From Calditrichia bacterium (GTDB taxonomy: Bacteria > Calditrichota > Calditrichia > JAJRVZ01), in contig CAVXXB010000008.1 of NCBI GenBank assembly GCA_963765585.1, positions 405,111-469,110 on the forward strand: a stretch of DNA of 64,000 nucleotides, written 5' to 3'. Every line of letters starts with the position of its first letter. Position 1 is the first letter of the stretch. The position numbers and the translations under genes are program-made. The notes under the pieces were generated by a model. That model did no database searches. It was not told where the DNA came from and saw only the letters and a list, made by a program, of their open reading frames with translations. This document shows, one piece after another, positions 4,157-61,071 of the stretch.

Positions 4157-5090
4157 GGATAAATCCCGGGGCTATTGATCATATTTATGAATCTATGCAA
4201 ATGTCATCCCGAATTTATTTCGGGAATATTCTGCTGGCTATCGGCTGTCTGCTCTCGGCCAACAGCCAACGGCAAACGATTTAGGATAAATCCCGGGGCC
4301 ATTGATCATATTTATCAATCTATGCAAATGTCATCCCGATTTTATTTCGGGAATATTCTGCTGGCTATCGGCTGTCTGCTCTCGGCCAACAGCCAACGGC
4401 AAACTGATTTAGGATAAATCCCGGGGCCATTGATCATTTTTATCAATCTATGCAAATGTCATCCCGAATTTATTTCGGGATCTATGTATCGGCTATCGGC
4501 CACCGGCAAACGATTAGGATAAATCCCGGGCTATGATCATATTTATCAATCTATGCAAATGTCATCCCGGAATATTCTGCTGGCTATCGGCTGTCTGCTC
4601 TCGGCCAACAGCCAACGGCAAACTGATTTAGGATAAATCCCGGGGCCATTGATCATATTTATCAATCTATGCAAATTTCATCCCGATTTTATTTCGGGAA
4701 TATTCTGCTGGCTATCGGCTGTCTGCTCTCGGCCAACAGCCAACGGCAAACTGATTTAGGATAAATCCCGGGGCCAGTGATCATATTTATCAATCTATGC
4801 AAATTTCATCCCGATTTTATTTCGGGAATATTCTGCTGGCTATCGGCTGTCTGCTCTCGGCCAACAGCCAACGGCAAACTGATTAAGGATAAATCCCGGG
4901 GCCATTGATCATATTTATCAATCTATGCAAATTTCATCCCGATTTTATTTCGGGAATATTCTGCTGGCTATCGGCTGTCTGCTCTCGGCCAACAGCCAAC
5001 GGCAAACTGATTTAGGATAAATCCCGGGGCCATTGATCATATTTATCAATCTATGTATCGGCTATCCGCTGTCGGCCATCGGCCAACGGA
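4157..5090. repeat. Tandem array of a ~127-128-bp unit, 6 near-identical copies plus 2 truncated/degenerate copies
   Basis: Unit starts (ggataaatcccgggg) fall at 4157, 4285, 4412, 4517, 4631, 4759, 4887 and 5015. The copy at 4412 is truncated and the copy at 4517 has a 12-bp deletion. Each unit carries the hairpin tcatcccgattttatttcgggaat. The last degenerate copy runs into the stop codon of the transporter gene at 5091. Confidence 0.95.
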
Positions 5091-6413: not shown

Positions 6414-6567
6414 TTGTTTTCCTGACTGATACTTTTTTGACCAATAAGAAAAGTTAGAAGTTAGAGTTTATCATTGGCCACTCGCCTCTCGGCTCTCGCC
6501 CCAAGACATACAAAATGGAGCTGTATTCGAAACCAGTGCCGAGTACCAAGTTCCTAATTCCTAACTC

Positions 6568-7380
6568 CTAACTGCTATTAATAAGCCCATACCCCAGACT
6601 CTTCGAAATGCTGTCTGCGTGTTTTTTTACCTGTTTACCGATTTTTTCAAATTCTGATTCGGGTATTCTGATCGACGGCCCGGTAATCCATATGGCGGCA
6701 ATCGGCTTGCCGTGCCGGTTGAACACGGGCGCAGAGATGCAATGCATTCCTTCAATTTCTTCCGCATGATCAATAGAATAGCCATCTTTACGAACTTTCG
6801 TAAGCACCCTGCGATATTTTTCTAAACTTAAAATTGTACGTGAACTGTATTTTTTAAACACAATCTTTTTGAATATTTTTTCCTGTGCTTCCTTAGGTAA
6901 AAAGGCAATCATTGCTTTTCCTGGTGCAGCGGTATGTAACTGAAATTTGCGTCCCGGTTCCAGTACAAAGCGAAACGAATGAATCCCTGGTACTTCCTCG
7001 ATCACCATTCCTTCATGACCATGTAACACACCAAGAGGAACCGTTTCGCCAAACATGTCCCTCAGGCGGCGCATATGGTCCAATGCTTTTTCAACCAGCG
7101 ATTCTTCGGTTAGTGCATTATATCCCAACACAAGCAATTTTTGCGACAATTGGAAGGCCTTGGTATCCTCATCCCGGTTCAAATAGCCGCGATCGAATAG
7201 CGTTGCCGTGATTCTAAAAATACTATTACGCGGGATGTTAGACTGAGTTGAAATTTCGCTGGAATTGAGACCTTGAGAATTATTGGCGAGGAGCTCAATA
7301 ATTTCCAGGGCCCGTTCAAGATTGGGAACATGATATTTGGAAGGGGTACCTTTGATATTCATTACTGTCTTAATCCCCAA
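6568..7380 (-). CDS. IclR-family transcriptional regulator (KdgR-like)
   Basis: 270 aa. The N-terminal wHTH (LERALEIIELLANNSQGLNSSEISTQSNIPRNSIFRITATL) is followed by an IclR effector domain. KdgR of pectin/hexuronate regulons belongs to this family. Confidence 0.8.
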   Translation of the reverse strand: MGIKTVMNIKGTPSKYHVPNLERALEIIELLANNSQGLNSSEISTQSNIPRNSIFRITATLFDRGYLNRDEDTKAFQLSQKLLVLGYNALTEESLVEKALDHMRRLRDMFGETVPLGVLHGHEGMVIEEVPGIHSFRFVLEPGRKFQLHTAAPGKAMIAFLPKEAQEKIFKKIVFKKYSSRTILSLEKYRRVLTKVRKDGYSIDHAEEIEGMHCISAPVFNRHGKPIAAIWITGPSIRIPESEFEKIGKQVKKHADSISKSLGYGLINSS

Positions 7381-12021: not shown

Positions 12022-12192
12022 TGTGATATCTCCCGATTAACCGGGACCATACAAACAAGGTTCTTCTCCGGAAATATTTTCCGGAGAAAATTCATATAAA
12101 TTAATTTGTGAAACACATTATACCATAGCGCACACTTTTTCGCGGAGACGCGGATACGCAGAGTTTTACTCGGTACTCGCAGCTCTGTATTC

Positions 12193-12234: not shown

Positions 12235-15072
12235 TTATTTAAAGCTAATTTTCACTTCGTTAAGTATAGGTGAATATGCGCCGTTATCGGTTGTAAAAAT
12301 GGCCTTGTATTGCAACCAGGTTGCATCAGACGGCAGATTGATAATTTTGCCCGGTTGGGTATAATACGTGTCCTTACCATCAGGCCCCATCCATTGGGCT
12401 TGATCCAACATTTCCACACTTTTTGCCGCACGTACCTGGAAATGTATTTTACTGCGATTTGGTGTTTCTGCCTGCCAGGCTATTTTTTCAGGAATTTTAC
12501 CTGCCAAATTATGAGCTGAAGATATATAACTGTATGCAAATTTTCTATTCTCAATATGTCCGATATCAATACCCACATCATAATGGACGCCCACACTGGG
12601 AATCTCATGGCGATTGTCTGCAGAAAAGCCCTTTTCGCTGCCCCAGTAAATAAGTGAATTAGTACTATGGTCACCAAATTTCCCAATCTCATCATAACTG
12701 CCATCATGACGATGACAAAAGAAAAACACATCCGTATATCCGTCCAGATTAAAATCACTTGCGATCGATCCCGTGGCACCATCCGTAGGTAATTTTATGC
12801 TATTTTCAAGCGAATATCCATCTTCACCTCCAAGCAGGATAGTTGAATGCCAGGATCTGCGGCCATTGCCTTTGTAAAAGGGGCATATTAAATCAAGCCA
12901 GTCATCTCCATTTACATCGGCGATGCACATTGTCTTGGCCATAACGCCGATTTTTGTGAGATGCTCCGGATCAAATGTGCCATCCGCATTCTGATAATAA
13001 ATCAACACATTTTTATCATGGGCAAAGACAATATCCAGGAGGCCATCTTTGTTCAAATCCGCCACTCCAGGCGTCCCGGCGCCATTGCTTTCAGAAATTC
13101 GGATTCGTTTATCTTCCTTGAATTCACGGGTACCGGTTCCATAATAGATGCTGGCATCACCCCATTTCCCCTGCTGACCAAATACGATATCCAGATGACC
13201 ATCCCGGTTGATATCGGCAATTGATGCAGCACGGGTCATCATTATTGGCAATGTTGTTCGATCTGTGATGGGCCAACCCTGCTCGCTGCCCCAATAAATA
13301 AACGAACCTGGAAGCGGATCCCCATTTTCTGATTTTTTTACAGGTGTGCCATTGGATATAAGCACATCCAGATAGCCATCACGATCCAGATCGGCCACTT
13401 CCACACCCAATCCGGAATATGACGGCAAACCACTCATTCGCCATGAATCAAAGTCATTATTCTGATTCCAATAGACAAACGCTTCATTGGCCAGCCGCGT
13501 AATTTCACCCCGGTTAAGTAATATGACATCCACCTGATTGTCATCGTCCAGATCGGCAAAAGCCTGTTCGTAGGATTCCCGACCCGGCAATTCGATCCGG
13601 TCATCGACATTATATTTTCCATTGGCATTTCCAAAATAGAGATAATTTGGATCATAGTCCCCGCGTGAATTTCCCATCATTGACGTAAAAACGATATCGA
13701 GATGTCCATCCCCATTCAGATCCGCAATCGCGTTACCCTGGGCTCCGTGCTCATAAAGAGGTGTGCGTTGGGTTTTAGTAAATCCATCGGGTGAATTCCA
13801 ATAGATAAATGATGGTACTTCATAAGAATAGTGTTCCTGGAAATTTGACACGACCAGGTCAACCCATCCATCGTTGTTCAGATCTGCCGCATTGGCGCCC
13901 CAGGCACCAATCGTCTGGATTGAAACACGATTTTCTTCCAGAAAGCCTTTTTCAGAACCATAATACAAATATGAATCAATTAAGCGATTCGCCAGCCTGG
14001 GATTCCCGGTAAGTGAATGCTGGTGATTGGTAAAGAACACATCCTGATGACCATCTTTATTAAAATCTGAGATTACGACATCTTTTGCCATATAGCTTGT
14101 AAATGATATAGACCTATCCGTCAAAAATCCGTCGGCACTATTTAAATATGCAAGTGATGTGGTTCCTTCCTGATTTGCAAAAACCACATCTTTTAAACCG
14201 TCACCATTAATATCATCGCAAGCGACTGCATGGGCCTTTTTTGTCGGTAATTTTGCCATTTCTTTTTCATCGAATCCGGATTCGGAGCCATAATAGATAT
14301 AAGATTCCGCCCCATCCCCATTGGCAAAAACCAGATCCGGCCAGTCATCGCCATTCAACTCATCGATCAAAACATCAGTGGCACCTACCGTCAGGACATT
14401 TGTAAATTTTTCCGGATCAAAGCCACTCTTTGCCCCCCAGTAAATCCTGCTGGGGGAAGAACCTTCACGATTTTTATCGCGATATTCCCAGAACCCGCCG
14501 GAGAATGCAAATACAATATCCTGAAAACCATCCTTGTTCAAATCGCCGATGGCTGCTTTTTGCGTATTGGATCCGGGAAGTTCAACACGCTCTGCAAAAG
14601 GATAAAAGCCCCATTTGTCAGGCGATGATTTAAAATCCGGATCTTTCAATCCACCGTAATATATAAAAGACGGCATCTCCGTCCAGGTGCCATTTGAATA
14701 ATTTGCTACAACTAAATCCTGATTACCATCCTGGTTCAGATCGCCAGGTGTCACCCACATGGGGCCGTTGGCCGGCACATAATTGTGATTCTTAATACTA
14801 AAATCTTTGCCGTTTCCCCAATAAATGGACAGATCAAGCATCTCGATCAGAGGATGCGAATTGGCACACAGGATATCGATATAGCCATCGTCATTGACGT
14901 CCCAGCGATTGATCATCTGTACCCGGCCGTTATGGGATACATACGTATTGGCGCCGGCATCATCAAACGTGCCGTCTGCAAAATCGGTAAATGTTTTTTC
15001 AATCCACACATCCTGGCTAAACAGTGATATACAACTGAATAGAAAGATTACCAATATCAAAAATGTTTTCAT
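12235..15072 (-). CDS. Secreted FG-GAP/VCBS repeat beta-propeller protein (945 aa)
   Basis: Signal peptide present. There are more than 10 repeats of D(L/I)NxDGxxD(I/L)V calcium-binding FG-GAP motifs. Confidence 0.7.
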   Translation of the reverse strand: MKTFLILVIFLFSCISLFSQDVWIEKTFTDFADGTFDDAGANTYVSHNGRVQMINRWDVNDDGYIDILCANSHPLIEMLDLSIYWGNGKDFSIKNHNYVPANGPMWVTPGDLNQDGNQDLVVANYSNGTWTEMPSFIYYGGLKDPDFKSSPDKWGFYPFAERVELPGSNTQKAAIGDLNKDGFQDIVFAFSGGFWEYRDKNREGSSPSRIYWGAKSGFDPEKFTNVLTVGATDVLIDELNGDDWPDLVFANGDGAESYIYYGSESGFDEKEMAKLPTKKAHAVACDDINGDGLKDVVFANQEGTTSLAYLNSADGFLTDRSISFTSYMAKDVVISDFNKDGHQDVFFTNHQHSLTGNPRLANRLIDSYLYYGSEKGFLEENRVSIQTIGAWGANAADLNNDGWVDLVVSNFQEHYSYEVPSFIYWNSPDGFTKTQRTPLYEHGAQGNAIADLNGDGHLDIVFTSMMGNSRGDYDPNYLYFGNANGKYNVDDRIELPGRESYEQAFADLDDDNQVDVILLNRGEITRLANEAFVYWNQNNDFDSWRMSGLPSYSGLGVEVADLDRDGYLDVLISNGTPVKKSENGDPLPGSFIYWGSEQGWPITDRTTLPIMMTRAASIADINRDGHLDIVFGQQGKWGDASIYYGTGTREFKEDKRIRISESNGAGTPGVADLNKDGLLDIVFAHDKNVLIYYQNADGTFDPEHLTKIGVMAKTMCIADVNGDDWLDLICPFYKGNGRRSWHSTILLGGEDGYSLENSIKLPTDGATGSIASDFNLDGYTDVFFFCHRHDGSYDEIGKFGDHSTNSLIYWGSEKGFSADNRHEIPSVGVHYDVGIDIGHIENRKFAYSYISSAHNLAGKIPEKIAWQAETPNRSKIHFQVRAAKSVEMLDQAQWMGPDGKDTYYTQPGKIINLPSDATWLQYKAIFTTDNGAYSPILNEVKISFK

Positions 15073-15335
15073 CTTATGTCCATTTTTTTCCTGATTGCCT
15101 TCATTTATAGAACGCTGAGTACGCTGAATACCGCGGAATATTTAAGAACAGAGTGTAAGCAATTTAAATTCTGAACCGGGTTCAGAATGACCTTATTGTC
15201 TTCCCGTATTTGGTTCGGGATCTAAATGGAGATATATTTTTTAAACTGTTATTTGGTAGTTATAAACGAACTCACAATAAATCTCTCATCTCTAATTTAT
15301 TAAAATCCGCCTTACTCTGAATAATCTGCGTTAAA

Positions 15336-16136
15336 TTACAGATCACGCTCATATAACAACATGAGAGTATTTGACATTTGGATACGTATTTCCCTGTATT
15401 TCTCATTATCTGCCTGACTCTCTGTAAGTTTGATTTCACGCGTCAGGTAGTTGATCAGTTCCTCTTTTGATCGTTGTGCATAATAACTATCAGGGAACCG
15501 ATCCATATAATCCTTAAATAGAATAAATCCCAGAGGCCATAATTGTTCAAAGTTACCCCATTTCTCAGATATTCTCTGATCTATAACCTGTAGAATACTT
15601 TTATTTGCTTCAAATGATCTGGTTTCAGAACTTTTATGTGCCATAAACTGATACTCAAAAAAAAGTTCATTCATAGCAATTAATTCTGATTCGGTGTTAC
15701 CAGTACCCAGTTCCGAGTAATAGTAACGCACAGAATCCAGCCAGGTCTGAATTTCAAATTTCGATAGTTTCTCCACATCCAGCTTATAATTTATGGGTAT
15801 GTTAAGCCAGAACTTCTCCACCTTGCCATTTACTGTGCCGGGTTCAAATTTTGCCGTCTTAATCATATCAAGTGCCGATTGATCCAATAATTGTGATCCG
15901 GATGATCGGTATATATCTGCCAGCGCTACATTACCCTGTTCATCAATCATTACTTTTAACTGTACTGATCCGGATATATTATATTCATAGGCCTCCCTGG
16001 GATACTCAAATGCGATATGTGTGGAAAGTAATTTTGGGTAAACTATCCCCGATTTGTTCTGTTTTTGTGGATGACATCCTAACAGAAAACAAAATAAAAA
16101 TAATAACAGATATTTTGACGCAATGTGTCTTATCAT
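15336..16136 (-). CDS. Lipoprotein with a TonB C-terminal-like domain
   Basis: 266 aa with a signal peptide and lipobox (LLGCHPQ). The segment YPREAYEYNISGSVQLKVMIDEQGNV...SSGSQLLDQSALDMIKTAKFEP matches the TonB_C fold signature. Confidence 0.55.
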   Translation of the reverse strand: MIRHIASKYLLLFLFCFLLGCHPQKQNKSGIVYPKLLSTHIAFEYPREAYEYNISGSVQLKVMIDEQGNVALADIYRSSGSQLLDQSALDMIKTAKFEPGTVNGKVEKFWLNIPINYKLDVEKLSKFEIQTWLDSVRYYYSELGTGNTESELIAMNELFFEYQFMAHKSSETRSFEANKSILQVIDQRISEKWGNFEQLWPLGFILFKDYMDRFPDSYYAQRSKEELINYLTREIKLTESQADNEKYREIRIQMSNTLMLLYERDL

Positions 16137-18774: not shown

Positions 18775-19052
18775 TGGATACAAGATACAGGATACAGTAT
18801 TCAGGATACAAGATGCTGGATGCTACTTTCATTGTCATCTCGAAGAGATCTTTCCGGATTGCTGGTGCCCTTTTCGACGGGAAGATTCCTTCGGAATGAC
18901 ATAAGAATTACTTAGTACCCTGGATATAGTATCCTGCATATTGCTTCGGCTATAAGGTCCTTTCAGGAAGACAATTCGGTGCCACCTCTATACTGAAGCC
19001 TGGCGCCTGAAACCTGGGGCCTGTATCTTGCATCCAGCATCCAGTATCTGCT
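18775..19052. repeat. MITE-like dispersed element, copy A
   Basis: The low-complexity arm caagatacaggatacag... at 18781 pairs with the inverted arm ...ctgtatcttgcatccagcatccagtatctg at 19021..19050. The core tgtcatctcgaagagatctttccggattgctggtgc...gaagattccttcggaatgacataagaatta is near-identical to 21796..21880. Confidence 0.8.
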
Positions 19053-20478: not shown

Positions 20479-20492
20479 ACAAACTCCTTTTT

Positions 20493-20923
20493 ATAGAACA
20501 CGGATTACACTGATTACTCGAAGTATCAATAAGCGTTCCCGAGAATATCTCGGGAACGAGATATCTATGATTACGGATTAAATGTAGTAATTTAATGATC
20601 TCACATGAGTAATTCATGCAATTTACCACAAAGACTCAAAGACACGAAGAAAAAGAATTAAAAATTTATAATTGAAATACAATCACCGTGTTTTATAATT
20701 ATAACTCTTTCTGCTAATCCATTATTTTTTATAACTTTGTATCTTTGTTACTTTGTGACTTTGTGTTTATGAATAATTCAGGCTAATTATTTTAATAAAA
20801 TATATTGAATATAAGTATAGTATGTATAAATATTTTTAATTTCGATCTAAAATGCATAAATCTATAAAAATTATTTTTTAAATTCCGCGTTAATCCGTGT
20901 GATCCGCGTAATCCGTGTTCTAT
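20493..20923. mobile_element. 431-bp intergenic element bounded by 16-bp perfect terminal inverted repeats (atagaacacggattac / gtaatccgtgttctat)
   Basis: The TIRs at 20493..20508 and 20908..20923 sit right next to the uxaC start and the methyltransferase start. The interior has a perfect palindrome gttcccgagaatatctcgggaac (20535..20557), direct 9-10-bp words CACGGATTA/CACTGATTA, and a very AT-rich centre. Confidence 0.5.
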
Positions 20924-20944
20924 CAAATAATTAACGGGAGCAAT

Positions 20945-21694
20945 ATGAATAACGATTTTATCTTTGAGTTTTTTGAAAAAATGCCCAGACAAGGCCCTGG
21001 ATCAGAAAAATATACGTTACAAGCATTGGAGAAAATCAAGCATAGATTGCCGGTTACCCCTAATATACTGGATATCGGGTGTGGCAATGGTACACAAACA
21101 TTTGATCTGTTACAGGCGCTTCCTTCGGCCAATATAACCGCAATTGATATTCACCCACCATTTCTTGACATGGTCAAAGAGAAATGTTGTAAGATACTAC
21201 AGCCCCCGGCAAAAGTTCATGCACAGGCAATGTCCATGGCAGAAATCGACTTTGATCCGGGCACATTTGATCTCATCTGGTCGGAGGGCGCGATATACAA
21301 TGTCGGTTTTGAAAGAGGAATACAACTTTGGCAGGATTTACTAAAACCCGATGGATATATGGTGGTATCCGAAGCCGTCTGGCTAAAACCGGATTTGCCT
21401 GCGCCGGTGAGAGATTTTTGGGAATCAGAATATCCCGAGATCGGCACTATCGCGGATAAATTTTCAATCATTGAAAAATCCGGCTTAGAAACAGTTCATC
21501 ATTTTACGCTTCCCAAATCAGTGTGGCAGGATGAGTTTTATGTTCCCATGCAGGAATTAATCAATCATTTTCGTAAATCGCAAAAGAGTAACGTGATGAA
21601 TGAATTCCTTGACGGCATGCAGATTGAGATAGATATGTTCAAATCTTACGGAGAGTATTATTCGTATGAATTTTTTGTGATGGGGAAAAGATAG
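20945..21694 (+). CDS. Class I SAM-dependent methyltransferase
   Basis: The glycine-rich SAM motif I (LDIGCGNGTQT) and an acidic motif II (AIDIHPP) are present. The ORF track starts at 20915, but that ATG lies inside the right TIR, so the ATG at 20945 (MNNDFIFEFF) is more likely. Confidence 0.75.
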   Translation: MNNDFIFEFFEKMPRQGPGSEKYTLQALEKIKHRLPVTPNILDIGCGNGTQTFDLLQALPSANITAIDIHPPFLDMVKEKCCKILQPPAKVHAQAMSMAEIDFDPGTFDLIWSEGAIYNVGFERGIQLWQDLLKPDGYMVVSEAVWLKPDLPAPVRDFWESEYPEIGTIADKFSIIEKSGLETVHHFTLPKSVWQDEFYVPMQELINHFRKSQKSNVMNEFLDGMQIEIDMFKSYGEYYSYEFFVMGKR

Positions 21695-21919
21695 ATGCTT
21701 GATACTGGATGCAGGATACAGGATTCAGGATGCTGGATACTGGATGCTTGATGATGTGAATTCGATAAAATCGCACTCTATGTCATTCTGCATTCTGCCT
21801 GCCCCTGTCATCTCGCAGAGATCCTCCCGGATTGCTGGTGCACAATGCGACGAGAAGATTCCTTCGGAATGACACAAGAATTAATCAGTAACTTATTCTC
21901 GTATCCAGTATCCAGAATC
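21695..21919. repeat. MITE-like dispersed element, copy B
   Basis: Arms gatgcttgatactggatgcaggatacagg... and ...gtatccagtatccagaatc flank the core tgtcatctcgcagagatcctcccggattgctggtgc...gaagattccttcggaatgacacaagaatta, which matches copy A at 18828..18910. Confidence 0.8.
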
Positions 21920-21961
21920 ATATTGGGAACTTATTTTACGAGGAATTGTACAAACCGGCTT

Positions 21962-22003
21962 AAAAAAGAAAAACCCATCCGGGGCATGAACCGGACGGGT
22001 TTT
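21962..22003 (-). terminator. Intrinsic terminator of the TPR gene
   Basis: Hairpin aaacccatccggggcatgaaccggacgggttt at 21971..22003. On the minus strand it is followed by tttttctttttt. Confidence 0.65.
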
Positions 22004-22130
22004 CCAGACGTTAGGCTACACAAGGTGTGTAGACTTTGGAAGGCAAACTAATTTAACAATAAATTCAGTAAAAGTATTCCCTTTTCTGAATTTTTTTTAT
22101 TTTTTTTGTATTTGGGAAAATAATTAGAAC

Positions 22131-23429: not shown

Positions 23430-23925
23430 ATTGACTTTGCTAACGATTTGCTTCTCTGTGCCTGCAAAAGCAATTGCTCTGATATTTTCAAGAATTTCTT
23501 TATTCGTACTATAATCGATGTACCAAATAATTGAAAAATAAGATGAACGTACATACGATTAATAAAAGAATAACATAGAGATAATTTTTAGTTTTCATTC
23601 CATCACCTGATATTTGAGAGTAGTATAAAATAGAGACAGGTCATCTCGCAGAAACCCTCCCGTGATGCAGGCACTGCGTTAGAACAAGAAAATGTTACCC
23701 GAACGACGGAAAGATCCCTGAAGGGATGACAAATTAATATCAATGTCCAATGCCCAAGTCCGAATGTCAAATGAATGCCCAAAATAAAATGCCAAATTAT
23801 AAAAGTAATTCACAATCATTGGACATTGAAAATTGATTTGGCATTTGGATTTTGACATTTGGCATTCTTATTTAAAACTTTGTGATCTTCGTGGTGAATT
23901 ATAGTACTCATAATAATTTCACCAC

Positions 23926-25623: not shown

Positions 25624-26096
25624 TAACGTCCTGTTCTAATAGTATTATGGCGTTAATCCGGCCTGCCGCGTTTCACACGGGTCATCCCCGTTCTATTTCT
25701 TTGATGTTGATATCCTATGATACTATTTATTATTATGCAATATTACTGGTAGACGAATATTATATTTCACCCCTAAAGGGGTTTTCAATGTTTTTGGGAA
25801 CTCCATTTACTACAAATATAGAACCGCTACGCGGTTCTTTGTATATCCTCGATATCATAGTCCCGTCAGGGATTATATATTTCTATCCATTTTTGATAGA
25901 GCATAGTAAAAATCCCTTAGAGTTAATATATTATAAGTAATTTGTAATTGGTAATTTTAATGAACCAATAGCCAACTCCAGGTTCTGAATAACCAATAAC
26001 CAATTCCAAGTTACAAGTTACGAGTTACAAATTCCTAATCCCTCATCTCTAATCTATTTCACCTGTGCATTTACATGAGAGACAATTTCCCCCTTA

Positions 26097-29627: not shown

Positions 29628-30011
29628 TACCGCATGAGATAAGAAATATTAGTAAGATGAAAAAATATGCCAGCCGAATAGCAGAATTATTATTAGAAAT
29701 ACATTTATAAAGATGGTTTATCATATACTCGTTTTCCCACCAACAAAATCAGTGATAATTTCTTTATACAAAAAGTCTGATAATTTACCAAAAAATAATA
29801 GAATAGTTTGAACCCTGAATTTAATCAGGGTCTCTCGCATAGACCCAAAGACCCGAGACAAGATGATTAGGTAAGTTAGAATGAGAAGTTAGAAATTGTA
29901 ATGGTAATTATTGCACATCGCCAATTACAAATTCTTAATTCCAAATCGTTTCATCTGCGCCTCTGCGACTCTGCGTGAAATAATTGTAAACAAATATGGA
30001 TGTTTACGCCC

Positions 30012-31652: not shown

Positions 31653-31959
31653 ATTTAAACTCCTGAGATCTAATTTGAATTGAGCCCCACTACCCTATTA
31701 TTAACTCACGCAGAGGCGCAGAGACGCTGAGAAAAAGAATATTGAATAGAAATTAGAGATTTGCGATTGGCAATATTTACAAATTACCAGTTCCTAATTC
31801 CGAGTTCCAAATTCTCCATTTTTGAGCAGGAGATTCTTCGTCCGCCAGACGGCGGACTCAGAATGACACCTAATATAATAACGAATTACCAATAGCAAAT
31901 TACTATCCTCATTTCTAACTTCTAACTATTTTTACTGCCTCTCTGCGAGTGAACATTGC

Positions 31960-38479: not shown

Positions 38480-38686
38480 AAATATTCTCGGTTAATTCAC
38501 ATTCAGAGAGAAAGGAAATTGGGAATTAGGACTTGGGAACTTGTGATTGTGCTTTGTTATTGATTATATTAAAAACAAATAAATATCACCCAGCACCAAT
38601 GCCAAATAACTAATTACAAGTTACTAATTCCCAGTTCCAAGTTTCAAATCTCTAATCTCTCATTCCTCATTTCTAATCTCTAACTT

Positions 38687-39808
38687 CTACCTTAATCCCG
38701 GGTAGTACCCCTTACCCTTCCCTCTGGCTAATCCATGCCCGGTTCCGATCCAGATATCATCACCCATAAACTCTGTGCAGATGGTGAAATGGTTTGGTAA
38801 ATCCAGATTTGTCTCCACTTTATCTATTATCTTATTTCCACGCATTACTTTTGCCGTCCAGGTTTTATCATCTTCATTTTCAAGCACATAGGTAACCCAG
38901 GTATCTGAATCAAAATCCACCAGCACGCCCAATCCCTTATCGGTGCAATTATAACTTGATATTGCACTTCTTCCCAGTGACAGATTTATAAAATTACTGG
39001 GTAATCCACTGTCATGATCCATATACCCGCGCCAGTTTCTGCCATCATAACGACTTAACCCAAAATAAGTTGAGGCCCATAATACGTTATCCACATAGGA
39101 TGCGGATGTAGTGATCACATGAACCAGTCCATCATCACGATACAGATCAATCTCCATTTCGCCGTCGGGATCATGGTATACCTTCCAGCTCTCTGTCGGT
39201 ACATCCCACTCCAGAATCCCACCGCCCCAGACTGCAAAATATACCTTGTCATCATTGGCATCGACATTGTAAGTCCAGACCTCTTCCATGGGCGCATGTT
39301 TTTCATTAAAAACCGCCCATTCGCCACTCAACTGGTTATACCGACTGATCCCTGCAGTGGTAGCCACCCATACATTATCGCCCTCAATATCAATGCCATA
39401 TACCACATCATTTAATAAACCGCTGTTCATTTGCGTAAAATGTTCAAAATATCCGCCGCTGAACCGGGCGATTCCCTCACCAAATAATGCCAGCCATAGT
39501 TCACCGGTTTTGTGATCTTTGGCGATACCCATTATTACATTCCAGGGTAATCCATTGGCCTCCGTCCAGCTTTCCCACTTACCATTATAATAGAGTACCA
39601 GACCACCCTCCGTGCCGATCCACAGGCTATCGCCATCTGCTTCCAGAAAGAAAATATGATCATTTATCAACTGCCCCCCAGTTGACTCCGTTGTAAAAGT
39701 TTCCCACTCAGTATAGACAAAAGGAAATCCGGCGTTTACATCCCTATCACTTTCCTGACCAAAAGTCAAAATTGAAAATAACAGGAGGATCATTATTGAT
39801 TTATACAT
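38687..39808 (-). CDS. Secreted beta-propeller protein with two-component-regulator-propeller (Reg_prop)-like repeats
   Basis: 373 aa with a signal peptide. Repeats are of the type WIGTEGGLVLYYNGKWESW and VWVATTAGISRYN. Confidence 0.55.
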   Translation of the reverse strand: MYKSIMILLLFSILTFGQESDRDVNAGFPFVYTEWETFTTESTGGQLINDHIFFLEADGDSLWIGTEGGLVLYYNGKWESWTEANGLPWNVIMGIAKDHKTGELWLALFGEGIARFSGGYFEHFTQMNSGLLNDVVYGIDIEGDNVWVATTAGISRYNQLSGEWAVFNEKHAPMEEVWTYNVDANDDKVYFAVWGGGILEWDVPTESWKVYHDPDGEMEIDLYRDDGLVHVITTSASYVDNVLWASTYFGLSRYDGRNWRGYMDHDSGLPSNFINLSLGRSAISSYNCTDKGLGVLVDFDSDTWVTYVLENEDDKTWTAKVMRGNKIIDKVETNLDLPNHFTICTEFMGDDIWIGTGHGLARGKGKGYYPGLR

Positions 39809-42255: not shown

Positions 42256-42441
42256 AATGCAAATCTGATCTATTCAGATATTTCTAAAGCAAAGTCGCAG
42301 AAAAAGATAGTTAGAAGTTTGGAACTGGGAATTGGGAATTAGTAATTTGTTATTGGTTATTAGTACATCTTTTTACTTCTAACTTCTAATTCCAATTCCT
42401 AATTTTCGTCTCTGCATCTTTGCGAGAGATAACCTATCCAT

Positions 42442-60632: not shown

Positions 60633-61071
60633 GTATCAGATCCCTTCAAATTCAAGACTCATTCTTAAGGTTATTATCAGTAAGTCCCACATCTACCCGA
60701 TCATAAAAGATCTTGTGATCCTTTAATATGAGCTCTCCCGATGACATCAAGATAATCTTTATTTTCAATAATTAGTTACCATTATTAATTATCATTTATT
60801 ATGATTTTACTAAGTTCTTTTCTTTTACAAACAATAAAAACGAATTGCTTGTTAATGAGATTTCTTCGTCGCTGAACGCTTCGCAATAAAATGAAAATGG
60901 AGCGTACGAATGAAAGTTTATGCGCAGGCGAGAGTCTATTGGCCCGTTAATTTCACGGATTTAACTGATTTTTGCTGATTGGTTTCACAATATTTAAGAC
61001 ATGTGCCTGAATCCGGCCCGCCTGTTTCACAGGAAAAACAGGATAATCCGCGTGTAATTAATCAGATGATG

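Follow-up and report, generated by a model that had tools for sequence, protein, structure and literature searches.

A stretched, gene-less copy of a dispersed GxxExxY-linked repeat family probably lies between uxaC and a divergent methyltransferase gene

Introduction

The genes for glucuronate isomerase (uxaC; PF02614, E 2e-89) and a class I SAM methyltransferase are divergently transcribed, and the spacer between them holds a 431-bp feature bounded by inverted repeats. A sequence-only reading of this locus had offered two explanations: a non-autonomous mobile element (MITE) inserted into the divergent promoter region, or an operator array for a regulator of the hexuronate genes, and possibly both. 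The question is whether the feature belongs to these two genes or to a family of elements found elsewhere. In this study, we analysed the feature within a 64-kb window, by which we mean the whole stretch of 64,000 nucleotides, and compared it with orthologous loci, with one genome per species, and with genes retrieved by protein alignment. The local element appears to be an ordinary gene-less copy of a repeat family, and both the family and its link to GxxExxY genes appear undescribed in the papers searched.

Results

Two inverted arrays surround an AT-rich core

The sequence ATAGAACACGGATTAC at 20493-20508 has its exact reverse complement at 20908-20923, forming the perfect 16-nt inverted repeat that the sequence-only reading had described. 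When up to 3 mismatches were allowed, 4 matches to this repeat were found in the window, against 0.43 expected from 100 dinucleotide-preserving shuffles. The inverted repeat can be extended to 37 nt at 81% identity (20489-20525 and 20891-20927). The feature consists of two inverted arrays of 9-nt units around a core (20526-20883) that is as AT-rich as had been reported, with 23.5% GC compared to 41.7% in the window as a whole. Its parts are as follows.

20493..20526, plus strand: left arm, made of the cap ATAGAAC (20493-20499), the units ACGGATTAC (20500-20508) and ACTGATTAC (20509-20517), and a degenerate third unit, TCGAAGTAT
20534..20558, no strand assigned: perfect palindrome CGTTCCCGAGA-ATA-TCTCGGGAACG of 11+3+11 nt with an 11-bp stem, inside the core
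20572..20580, plus strand: lone left-type unit TACGGATTA, beyond the palindrome
20627..20650, plus strand: inner left-type array of the 8-nt units CACAAAGA, CTCAAAGA and CACGAAGA
20672..20699, plus strand: best sigma-70-like promoter match, TTGAAA-16-TATAAT, 11/12, directed towards the methyltransferase gene; a consensus match only
20728..20764, plus strand: inner right-type array of the 8-nt units TAACTTTG, TATCTTTG, TTACTTTG and TGACTTTG, followed by GTGTTTAT
20882..20923, plus strand: right arm, made of a degenerate unit ATTCCGCG (20882-20889), the units TAATCCGTG (20891-20899), TGATCCGCG (20900-20908) and again TAATCCGTG (20909-20917), and the cap TTCTAT

The two left and three right 9-nt words noticed earlier are thus present, and each side carries in addition the degenerate unit listed above. 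Both arms lie directly upstream of a ribosome-binding site: 14 nt separate the left arm from the start codon of uxaC (20478, minus strand), and 21 nt separate the right arm from the methyltransferase ATG (20945). A profile of family arms matched them with E values of 2e-8 and 4e-9, respectively.

Within the core, the palindrome seen by the sequence-only reading has a terminator-like score on the minus strand. Judging from the lone left-type unit at 20572-20580, the left array may once have been longer and may have been interrupted by the palindrome. The CTTTGT repeats, also seen earlier, amount to 4.6 copies with an 8-nt period at 20728-20764; overlooked at the time was their inverted partner, three copies of CACAAAGA at 20627-20650, which together with them forms a 43-nt inverted repeat at 72% identity. 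The sequence GTGTTTAT that follows the inner right-type array resembles the cap GTGTTCTAT, and both CACAAAGA and GTGTTTAT resemble the CGCAAAT variant of the units described below. The inner 8-nt arrays may accordingly be nested, older material of the same GAAC-capped family. Sigma-70-like matches were no more numerous than in shuffled sequences.

The right arm also bears on the start of the methyltransferase gene. The repeat had been said to overlap the first ATG of this open reading frame. The overlap is real, but the codon concerned is a GTG (20915). The methyltransferase ortholog of the closest relative, L115, is called from the ATG homologous to 20945, and in the window this ATG is preceded by GGGAG. 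The distance from cap to ATG is 21 nt here and 28 nt in L115, so the frame is not kept and an N-terminal extension would not be conserved. These results support a methyltransferase start at 20945, as the sequence-only reading had argued.

The arrays are present at some orthologous loci and absent from others

By the names that depositors gave them, UxaC homologs indicate an affiliation with candidate division KSB1. An inserted element is expected to differ in presence between orthologous regions, and such a difference was found. In L115 (UxaC 87% identical, gene order kept), both arms stand beside the homologous two start codons. Compared with the window, the left units of this locus are more numerous, its cap is duplicated, and its core is shorter and different. 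Only the 140 nt nearest the methyltransferase gene align with the window, and this alignment, like that of the right arm, is collinear. The part of the window core that is missing in L115 (about 20526-20795) comprises the palindrome, the lone unit at 20572-20580, and the inner 8-nt arrays. L116 (UxaC 85%), which has a different upstream neighbour, carries a capless left-type array upstream of uxaC. The divergent gene pair is syntenic in L118 (UxaC 74%) and L202 (75%), and its spacers there are plain AT-rich sequences of 192 and 195 bp without arrays. No arrays were found upstream of uxaC in L203, L204, and L119, whose uxaC loci are more distant and non-syntenic.

This distribution indicates either a gain of the arrays in the lineage that comprises the window, L115, and L116, or their loss in the other lineages. 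Since the syntenic relatives lack them, the arrays are dispensable for the uxaC/methyltransferase gene pair. Alignments of the window core with the empty spacers of L118 and L202 were dominated by AT-rich low complexity. The L115 spacer measures 295 bp, and subtracting about 100 nt of arrays leaves about 195 bp, as much as a spacer without arrays measures. Because the arrays lie at the outer edges and the L115 spacer matches in size, a single block insertion does not explain the spacer. The picture is rather that of arms joined to the two edges of a pre-existing promoter region than that of one inserted block.

The arms belong to a repeat family dispersed over many phyla

We scanned one genome per species (596 Gb, two strands) for the exact 16-mer and found it at no fewer than 114 loci, about 10 of them being coding-sequence or chance matches. 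The count alone is uninformative because a random 16-mer is expected about 280 times in 596 Gb; it is the context that decides. This context is a bracket of the form AAT(A/G)GAAC-(CRCNGATNN)n ... (NNATCNGYG)n-GTTC(T/C)ATT, with 2-4 tandem 9-nt units behind each cap. No fewer than 100 genomes of many phyla carry it, so that both the 16-mer and the iteron-like motif extend well beyond the present locus. In typical 16-mer loci the bracket reads (CRCNGATNN)3-4, a short loop, and (NNATCNGYG)3-4. In a profile built from 174 family arms, the cap positions are 91-100% conserved. According to the labels of the depositors, the hosts include Ignavibacteriota, Bacteroidota, Melioribacteraceae, Calditrichota, Cloacimonadota, Acidobacteriota, Chloroflexota, and Planctomycetota, as well as Azospirillum isolates, a Synechococcus MAG, and archaeal MAGs including Methanoperedens.

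The feature of the window shares the defining traits of this family. It has the caps TATAGAAC at 20492-20499 and GTTCTATC at 20917-20924, canonical units directly inside them (two on the left, three on the right), and arrays in inverted orientation. It is intergenic and its ends lie near gene boundaries, as in the compact copies and at the ends of the gene-bearing cassettes described below. It is an outlier in length, at about 430 nt, since most copies measure 71-100 nt from end to end, with a tail to about 157 nt. Compact copies were located in intergenic DNA, between 17 co-directional, 4 convergent, and 2 divergent gene pairs, and often occupy the entire spacer. The genes next to the motif across many phyla are unrelated to one another and include leuC-leuD, leuA/cimA, bioD, serS, and tRNA genes.

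The arms of the gene-less compact copies do not covary (0.682 vs 0.687). Copies from one genome were, by eye, as divergent as copies across phyla (L054 vs L068), which does not fit a recent burst from one master copy. We estimated, on the basis of per-position null identities, that two family arms agree over their first 16 nt in about 6% of cases, and a perfect 16-nt repeat alone is therefore no proof of recent insertion. The DNA element was almost absent from phage and plasmid collections. Literature searches with sequence strings, which returned one irrelevant primer match, and with descriptive terms found no earlier description of it.

The longer form of the element encloses a GxxExxY gene

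Six family loci (L110, L031, L043, L106, L051, and L018, the last truncated) carry an open reading frame between the arms. The bracketed products match both TIGR04256, 'GxxExxY protein', and PF13366, PDDEXK_3, with E values of 1e-34 to 1e-39. The order is fixed in all six, namely ATAGAAC, left array, ribosome-binding site, open reading frame, right array, and GTTCTAT, over about 500 bp. The enclosed gene encodes about 125 aa and is always directed away from the ATAGAAC side and towards the GTTCTAT side.

Since these six loci had been chosen by their DNA motif, a retrieval based on protein only was performed. Alignment of the GxxExxY protein alone yielded an independent set of 80 metagenome loci, with 75 genes that had complete flanks. 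An array was scored when at least 2 left-type units occurred within 130 nt upstream or at least 2 right-type units within 140 nt downstream. Left-type arrays were found upstream of 44 of the 75 genes (59%) and in 5 of 561 background windows of the same loci; right-type arrays were found downstream of 41 of the 75 (55%) and in 9 of 561 background windows. Arrays on both sides were seen in 33 of the 75. The enrichment around GxxExxY genes is 30- to 60-fold over a background of 1-2%.

GxxExxY genes that scored zero mostly had variant units on both sides at once, of the type CGCAAAT, CGCGAAT, or CACGGAA, and the CGCAAAT type recurs beside GGAT-type sisters in the GxxExxY protein tree. These results indicate that the two arms of one element change together. 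The architecture around GxxExxY genes is not uniform: at some of them, one arm is present on both sides in direct orientation, or either side carries a complete palindrome. In the non-redundant copies that bear the open reading frame, 598 arm positions form Watson-Crick pairs, compared to 532.7 +/- 11.1 when arms were cross-paired, and 0 of 1000 shuffles reached 598. Arms that match in the ORF-bearing but not in the gene-less copies fit a picture of young ORF-bearing copies and decaying gene-less ones. Mismatches of the G-U type (59) are as frequent in the ORF-bearing copies as those of the A-C type (58), which leaves no transcribed-strand signature and no sign of selection on one strand.

The GxxExxY family is large, with at least 8000 homologs at E <= 1e-10. 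Members that depositors assign to archaea or bacteria (Methanoperedens, Deltaproteobacteria, and Bacteroidota) show 69-77% identity to relatives of one another. GxxExxY genes were found in none of 50,697 phage records and in 7 of 72,556 plasmids, so no vehicle for spread between phyla was found. Searches by sequence returned no homolog of solved structure. The AlphaFold model (pLDDT 92) predicts a small alpha/beta fold, whose PDB matches are weak and are PD-(D/E)XK nucleases only. The PDDEXK_3 family has been described as being of unknown function, with multiple transfers and mixed bacterial and archaeal clades (Steczkiewicz et al. 2012, PMC3424549). No paper describing the function of GxxExxY or its flanking repeats was found in the open-access literature searched.

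We then asked whether the window copy holds such a gene. No GxxExxY open reading frame or remnant was detected in six frames of the core or of the 64-kb window (hmmsearch --max; the positive control scored 221 bits). As the core holds no GxxExxY match, the window copy is gene-less, like the compact copies. We also considered a decayed open reading frame, as the core is near the size of a GxxExxY gene, but rejected the idea because no remnant was found in either of the two cores, those of the window and of L115, or in a second element of the window (15106..15336).

Discussion

Alternative readings of the arrays

Taken together, we consider that the 431-bp feature is probably an ORF-less, stretched copy of a dispersed repeat family linked to GxxExxY genes, and that it is non-autonomous and comparable to MITEs and REPINs. 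Several other readings of the arrays were weighed against this one.

One of them takes the arrays as sites for an abundant trans-acting DNA-binding protein, a nucleoid-associated protein or 'global regulator', that coats the 9-mers to either side of the divergent promoter and thereby modulates uxaC and the methyltransferase gene; the arrays would then be kept for this role and would not be selfish. The position of both arms directly upstream of ribosome-binding sites agrees with this, and so do the compact copies, whose units keep the core motif without covariation of the arms, as if each unit were read singly. An architecture like the present one is found in Geobacter metallireducens, for which global regulators such as IHF/HU were proposed (PMC2700814). 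However, syntenic relatives manage without the arrays, and the orientation to the downstream gene varies, the cap being distal at serS in L082 and proximal here. Conservation of the motif across phyla would moreover demand an equally conserved binder, and GxxExxY is the only candidate protein. We regard this reading as rather unlikely, and it would become compatible with the preferred one if the binder were GxxExxY itself.

A role at the RNA level was considered next, in which the arms pair in the transcript and form a long hairpin, serving in termination or stabilisation or as a site for RNase III. The compact copies fold stably (-35 to -60 kcal/mol, z -4.8 to -12), with about 1 mismatch per unit in their hairpins and with A-run and T-run flanks, and a gene 3' end adjoins at least one side in 21 of the 23 compact copies that have called genes on both sides. 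In the window, by contrast, 365 nt separate the two arms, which flank a divergent promoter region, and neither mRNA is expected to hold both, which makes a hairpin or terminator role unlikely for this copy. The equal numbers of G-U and A-C mismatches in ORF-bearing copies and the absence of covariation at variable positions in compact copies also speak against pairing as RNA. Rfam searches of the window and 18 compact-copy loci at gathering thresholds, and of one compact copy in E-value mode, returned no family apart from generic microRNA-hairpin noise. An RNA-level element is thus very unlikely here.

It may also be asked whether there is an element at all, or only local replication slippage in an unconstrained AT-rich spacer. 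Tandem repeats of 6-9 nt are common in the spacers of the window, and the number of units differs between the window and L115, which fits turnover; slippage is a likely cause of such changes in unit number. As an account of the whole feature it is highly improbable, because it explains neither a consensus of caps and units shared by at least 100 genomes from many phyla nor a 30- to 60-fold enrichment around one protein family.

An array of operators serving a hexuronate-specific regulator, the second proposal of the sequence-only reading, did not survive the comparison. It drew on the location between uxaC and a divergent gene and on tandem units that look like iterons, and the uxaC-side array is indeed kept in three related genomes. 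The same caps and units, however, flank unrelated genes across many phyla, and this distribution contradicts a hexuronate-specific operator. Arrays are missing from the gene pair in L118 and L202 and from upstream of uxaC in L203, L204, and L119 as well, and the nearby sugar-acid genes (Ldh_2, DUF4861) lack the canonical motif, the present locus being the sole canonical one in the window. We consider such an operator extremely unlikely.

An invertible promoter (inverton), in which a recombinase flips the 365-bp core and thereby switches expression, would have the usual geometry of 16-37-nt inverted repeats around an AT-rich segment of a few hundred bp with promoter-like sites, but it is hardly credible here: the right half of the core is collinear with L115 (both orientations were aligned, and the only match was collinear), no recombinase is encoded among the nine genes of 12.2-29.6 kb, the loops of most family members are too short to invert, and flipping a promoter region between divergent genes makes no obvious switch.

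Known motifs were compared with the element and set aside. In integron attC sites the boxes are R'' RYYYAAC and R' GTTRRRY, and the sites occur in arrays separated by cassettes. Of these boxes, the present caps ATAGAAC and GTTCTAT retain just the AAC/GTT triplets, with two of four degenerate positions per box failing to fit, and the open reading frame of the present family is inside the palindrome and not next to it. DnaA boxes (TTATCCACA against TNATCCGTG), the CsrA GGA motif, IHF sites, parS, dif, and the GAAC target of IS91 were set aside as apparent misfits in motif or in distribution.

A possible mechanism and its relation to known systems

REP/REPIN sequences and the RAYT transposases that go with them suggest a mechanism by analogy: the GxxExxY protein may recognise the 9-nt units and act at the GAAC/GTTC caps. 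ORF-bearing copies could spread or be maintained in this way, and gene-less copies would be non-autonomous leftovers that decay, lose the matching of their arms, and accumulate nested insertions. In the window, the AT-rich core between the arms would have to hold the promoters of both uxaC and the methyltransferase gene. If expression is affected at all, this would be a positional side effect, through 5'-leader sequence or a roadblock of bound protein, and not dedicated hexuronate control. More generally, we tentatively suggest that GxxExxY (PDDEXK_3) proteins could be the cognate enzymes of a foldback-type repeat of bacteria and archaea, in a REPIN-RAYT-like arrangement built on a PD-(D/E)XK nuclease, with gene-less copies as trans-dependent passengers able to bracket whole promoter regions. 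This broader proposal is possible, and we hold it with less than even confidence.

Several observations count against a simple transposon. No target-site duplication is visible at the window copy, whose flanks read ...CTTTTT | and | CAAATA..., or at 24 compact copies, where A-rich left and T-rich right flanks extend the palindrome. There is no transposase of a known family, a protein of 125 aa is small for a transposase, and the 64-kb window contains no GxxExxY gene. Movement of the element and its binding by protein are put forward here as putative properties, and a protein-binding reading with regulatory side effects is compatible with all the evidence too.

REP and REPIN sequences, reportedly treated together with RAYT transposases by Nunvar et al. 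in 2010 and by Bertels and Rainey in 2011, offer a parallel in how the evidence is built. Like the present family, they are dispersed, short, extragenic imperfect palindromes, often in inverted doublets of about 70-110 bp; in both systems the key evidence is an enzyme gene flanked by the inverted repeats, and most copies are gene-less. They differ in the enzyme, RAYT being an HUH (IS200-like) tyrosine transposase, whereas the partner here is PF13366/TIGR04256 with a PD-(D/E)XK fold. REPs are also single hairpins with a GT[AG]G head, whereas the arms described here carry a GAAC cap and tandem 9-nt units and are not self-palindromic. Finally, REPs are species-specific, while the present consensus is found across phyla, possibly across domains.

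The likeness to MITEs such as Correia/NEMIS elements lies in small gene-less elements with terminal inverted repeats, intergenic positions near gene starts, and presence/absence between genomes. The present copies differ in having no target-site duplication, no known transposase parent, arms made of degenerate tandem units, and high divergence from one another. A longer form with the same ends does exist, but it encodes a 125-aa protein of PD-(D/E)XK fold without known transposase function. The first proposal of the sequence-only reading is thus upheld in part: a dispersed family whose full form carries a nuclease-fold gene and the absence of the arrays from syntenic loci speak for a non-autonomous mobile element, while a target-site duplication, a known transposase, and a single inserted block are lacking.

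Intervening sequences of 23S rRNA, which are said to have been shown to carry an open reading frame by Ralph and McClelland in 1993, resemble the ORF-bearing form in having a small function-unknown open reading frame in the loop of a long inverted-repeat stem, within host transcription units, and in having ORF-less versions. Their protein is a four-helix bundle, their site is an rRNA helix, and their stems are not tandem 9-mers.

The 'predicted global regulator binding sites' of classes 1-3 in Geobacter metallireducens are pairs on opposite strands at variable distance, each with 3-5 tandem repeats of 7-9 nt (Aklujkar et al. 2009, PMC2700814). Compared by description, these sites share with our family an intergenic, multicopy occurrence, and the sequence TCCGTG is common to their class 2 unit TCTCCGTS[Y] and the right-type unit described here. 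They differ in that the authors read them as IHF/HU-type sites and report no link to an open reading frame (PMC2700814).

At the locus itself, the analysis removes a false lead, the hexuronate operator, and sets the methyltransferase start. Beyond it, an easily recognised DNA signature is now tied to GxxExxY/PDDEXK_3, and this repeat family is worth following up. If the link is functional, the 9-nt arrays with their GAAC caps would be a testable substrate for GxxExxY, and the 'paired tandem-repeat sites' noted in Geobacter in 2009 would be explained. Spacer sequence across many phyla could be masked or labelled accordingly by annotation pipelines.

Other repeats in the window

Searched with the profile of 174 arms, the 64-kb window contains one canonical copy and two weak relatives, which are as follows.

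15106..15336, plus strand: second, more degenerate and stretched element, occupying an entire spacer; profile E 0.2 on the left and 5.9 on the right (weak). On the left, TATAGAAC-GCTGAGTAC-GCTGAATAC-CGCGGAAT adjoins the start of the gene 12235..15072 (minus strand); on the right, the units AAATCCGCC..ATAATCTGCG and the cap GTTAAAT are located where the TonB_C gene 15336..16136 (minus strand) stops
60953..61053, plus strand: third relative, capless, CACGGATTT-AACTGATTT-TTGCTGATT, about 60 nt, and ATAATCCGCG; E 0.18 and 1.6 (weak)

Tandem repeats of 6-9 nt were also observed in spacers all over the window, often as nested inverted arrays. These window-wide repeats resemble the short tandemly repeated repetitive (STRR) sequences of cyanobacteria, reportedly described by Mazel et al. 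in 1990, in being tandem heptamer-type repeats in intergenic spacers. STRR sequences differ in that their units are lineage-specific and have neither a defined cap nor an associated gene.

Distribution of GxxExxY cassettes

Across different metagenomes, we found that GxxExxY cassettes, in which capped arrays of a 9-nt unit enclose a GxxExxY gene, recurred at the same operon-internal spacers.

Loci with GxxExxY cassettes at recurrent sites
leuC-leuD spacer: L110, L121-L124
before leuA/cimA: L127, L136, L151, L161
before bioD: L133, L141, L143, L157, L160, L196

Within the leuC-leuD group, the unit switched from CRCGGAT to CGCAAAT on both arms.

Both 9-mer palindromes and GxxExxY proteins were also present on archaeal-labelled contigs (Methanoperedens and an uncultured archaeon; loci L066 and L055; proteins P0141, P0149, P0158, and P0196). 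As these contigs carry the palindromes and their GxxExxY proteins are 70-75% identical to bacterial ones, the cases imply either recent transfer between domains or mis-binning.

Stretched copies and their internal hairpins

In isolates of three Azospirillum species (L019, L035, and L053), a stretched copy adjoining a tRNA gene was conserved. Its arms are ~75 nt apart, the right arm has no cap, and the AT-rich cap is conspicuous in genomes of 65-70% GC. In the window, both stretched elements contain a perfect hairpin (15168-15188 and 20534-20558) with GAAC/GTTC in the stem (ATTCTGAACCGGGTTCAGAAT and CGTTCCCGAGAATATCTCGGGAACG). These shared hairpins may be a coincidence or a second insertion type.

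Other repeats in the window

An element of ~75-90 bp, starting with GTCATCTCG(C/A)AGA and ending with ...GGAATGACA / GGGATGACA, was found in three copies, the first two of which are bracketed by inverted heptamer arrays.

Copies of the ~75-90-bp element and flanking arrays
18833-18910: upstream GGATRCW array at 18776-18814, downstream GYATCCA array at 19030-19048
21805-21885: upstream GGATRCW array at 21694-21753, downstream GYATCCA array at 21901-21919
23640-23730: third copy

It appears to be an array-bracketed element of a second type.

Most window spacers consist of inverted arrays, nested one inside another, whose tandem repeats are 6-9 nt long, as at the following positions.

Spacers with nested inverted arrays
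6445-6577
12141-12175
25910-26050
29954-29975
31708-31950
38514-38690
42296-42440

One example is nested, from the outermost pair inwards, as CGCAGAGN / TCTGCG, AGTTAGA / TCTAACT, and GGGAATT / AATTCC. Such spacers are a genome-wide habit; they resemble cyanobacterial STRR sequences and also the 'direct repeats of 6 to 42 nt' that PMC2996986 reports for Geobacter bemidjiensis.

A tandem array of ~7 copies of a 127/128-bp unit (83-98% identity) lies at 4157-5055, with one minus-strand gene on each side. Every unit contains a small hairpin (CATCCCGAATTTATTTCGGGA) and short repeats of the CGGCCAACAGCCAACGGC type.

Finally, ~100 nt of the window (21960-22060) were nearly identical to positions 4690-4770 of L116, a relative whose UxaC is 85% identical. 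The stretch consists of a hairpin resembling a terminator, AAAAACC...GGTTTTCC, and, after it, CCAGACGTTAGGCTACACAAGGTGTGTAGACTTTGGAAGG. It lies 3' of the methyltransferase gene in the window and 3' of an RRM_1 gene in L116, and may represent a conserved small RNA or else a 3' element.
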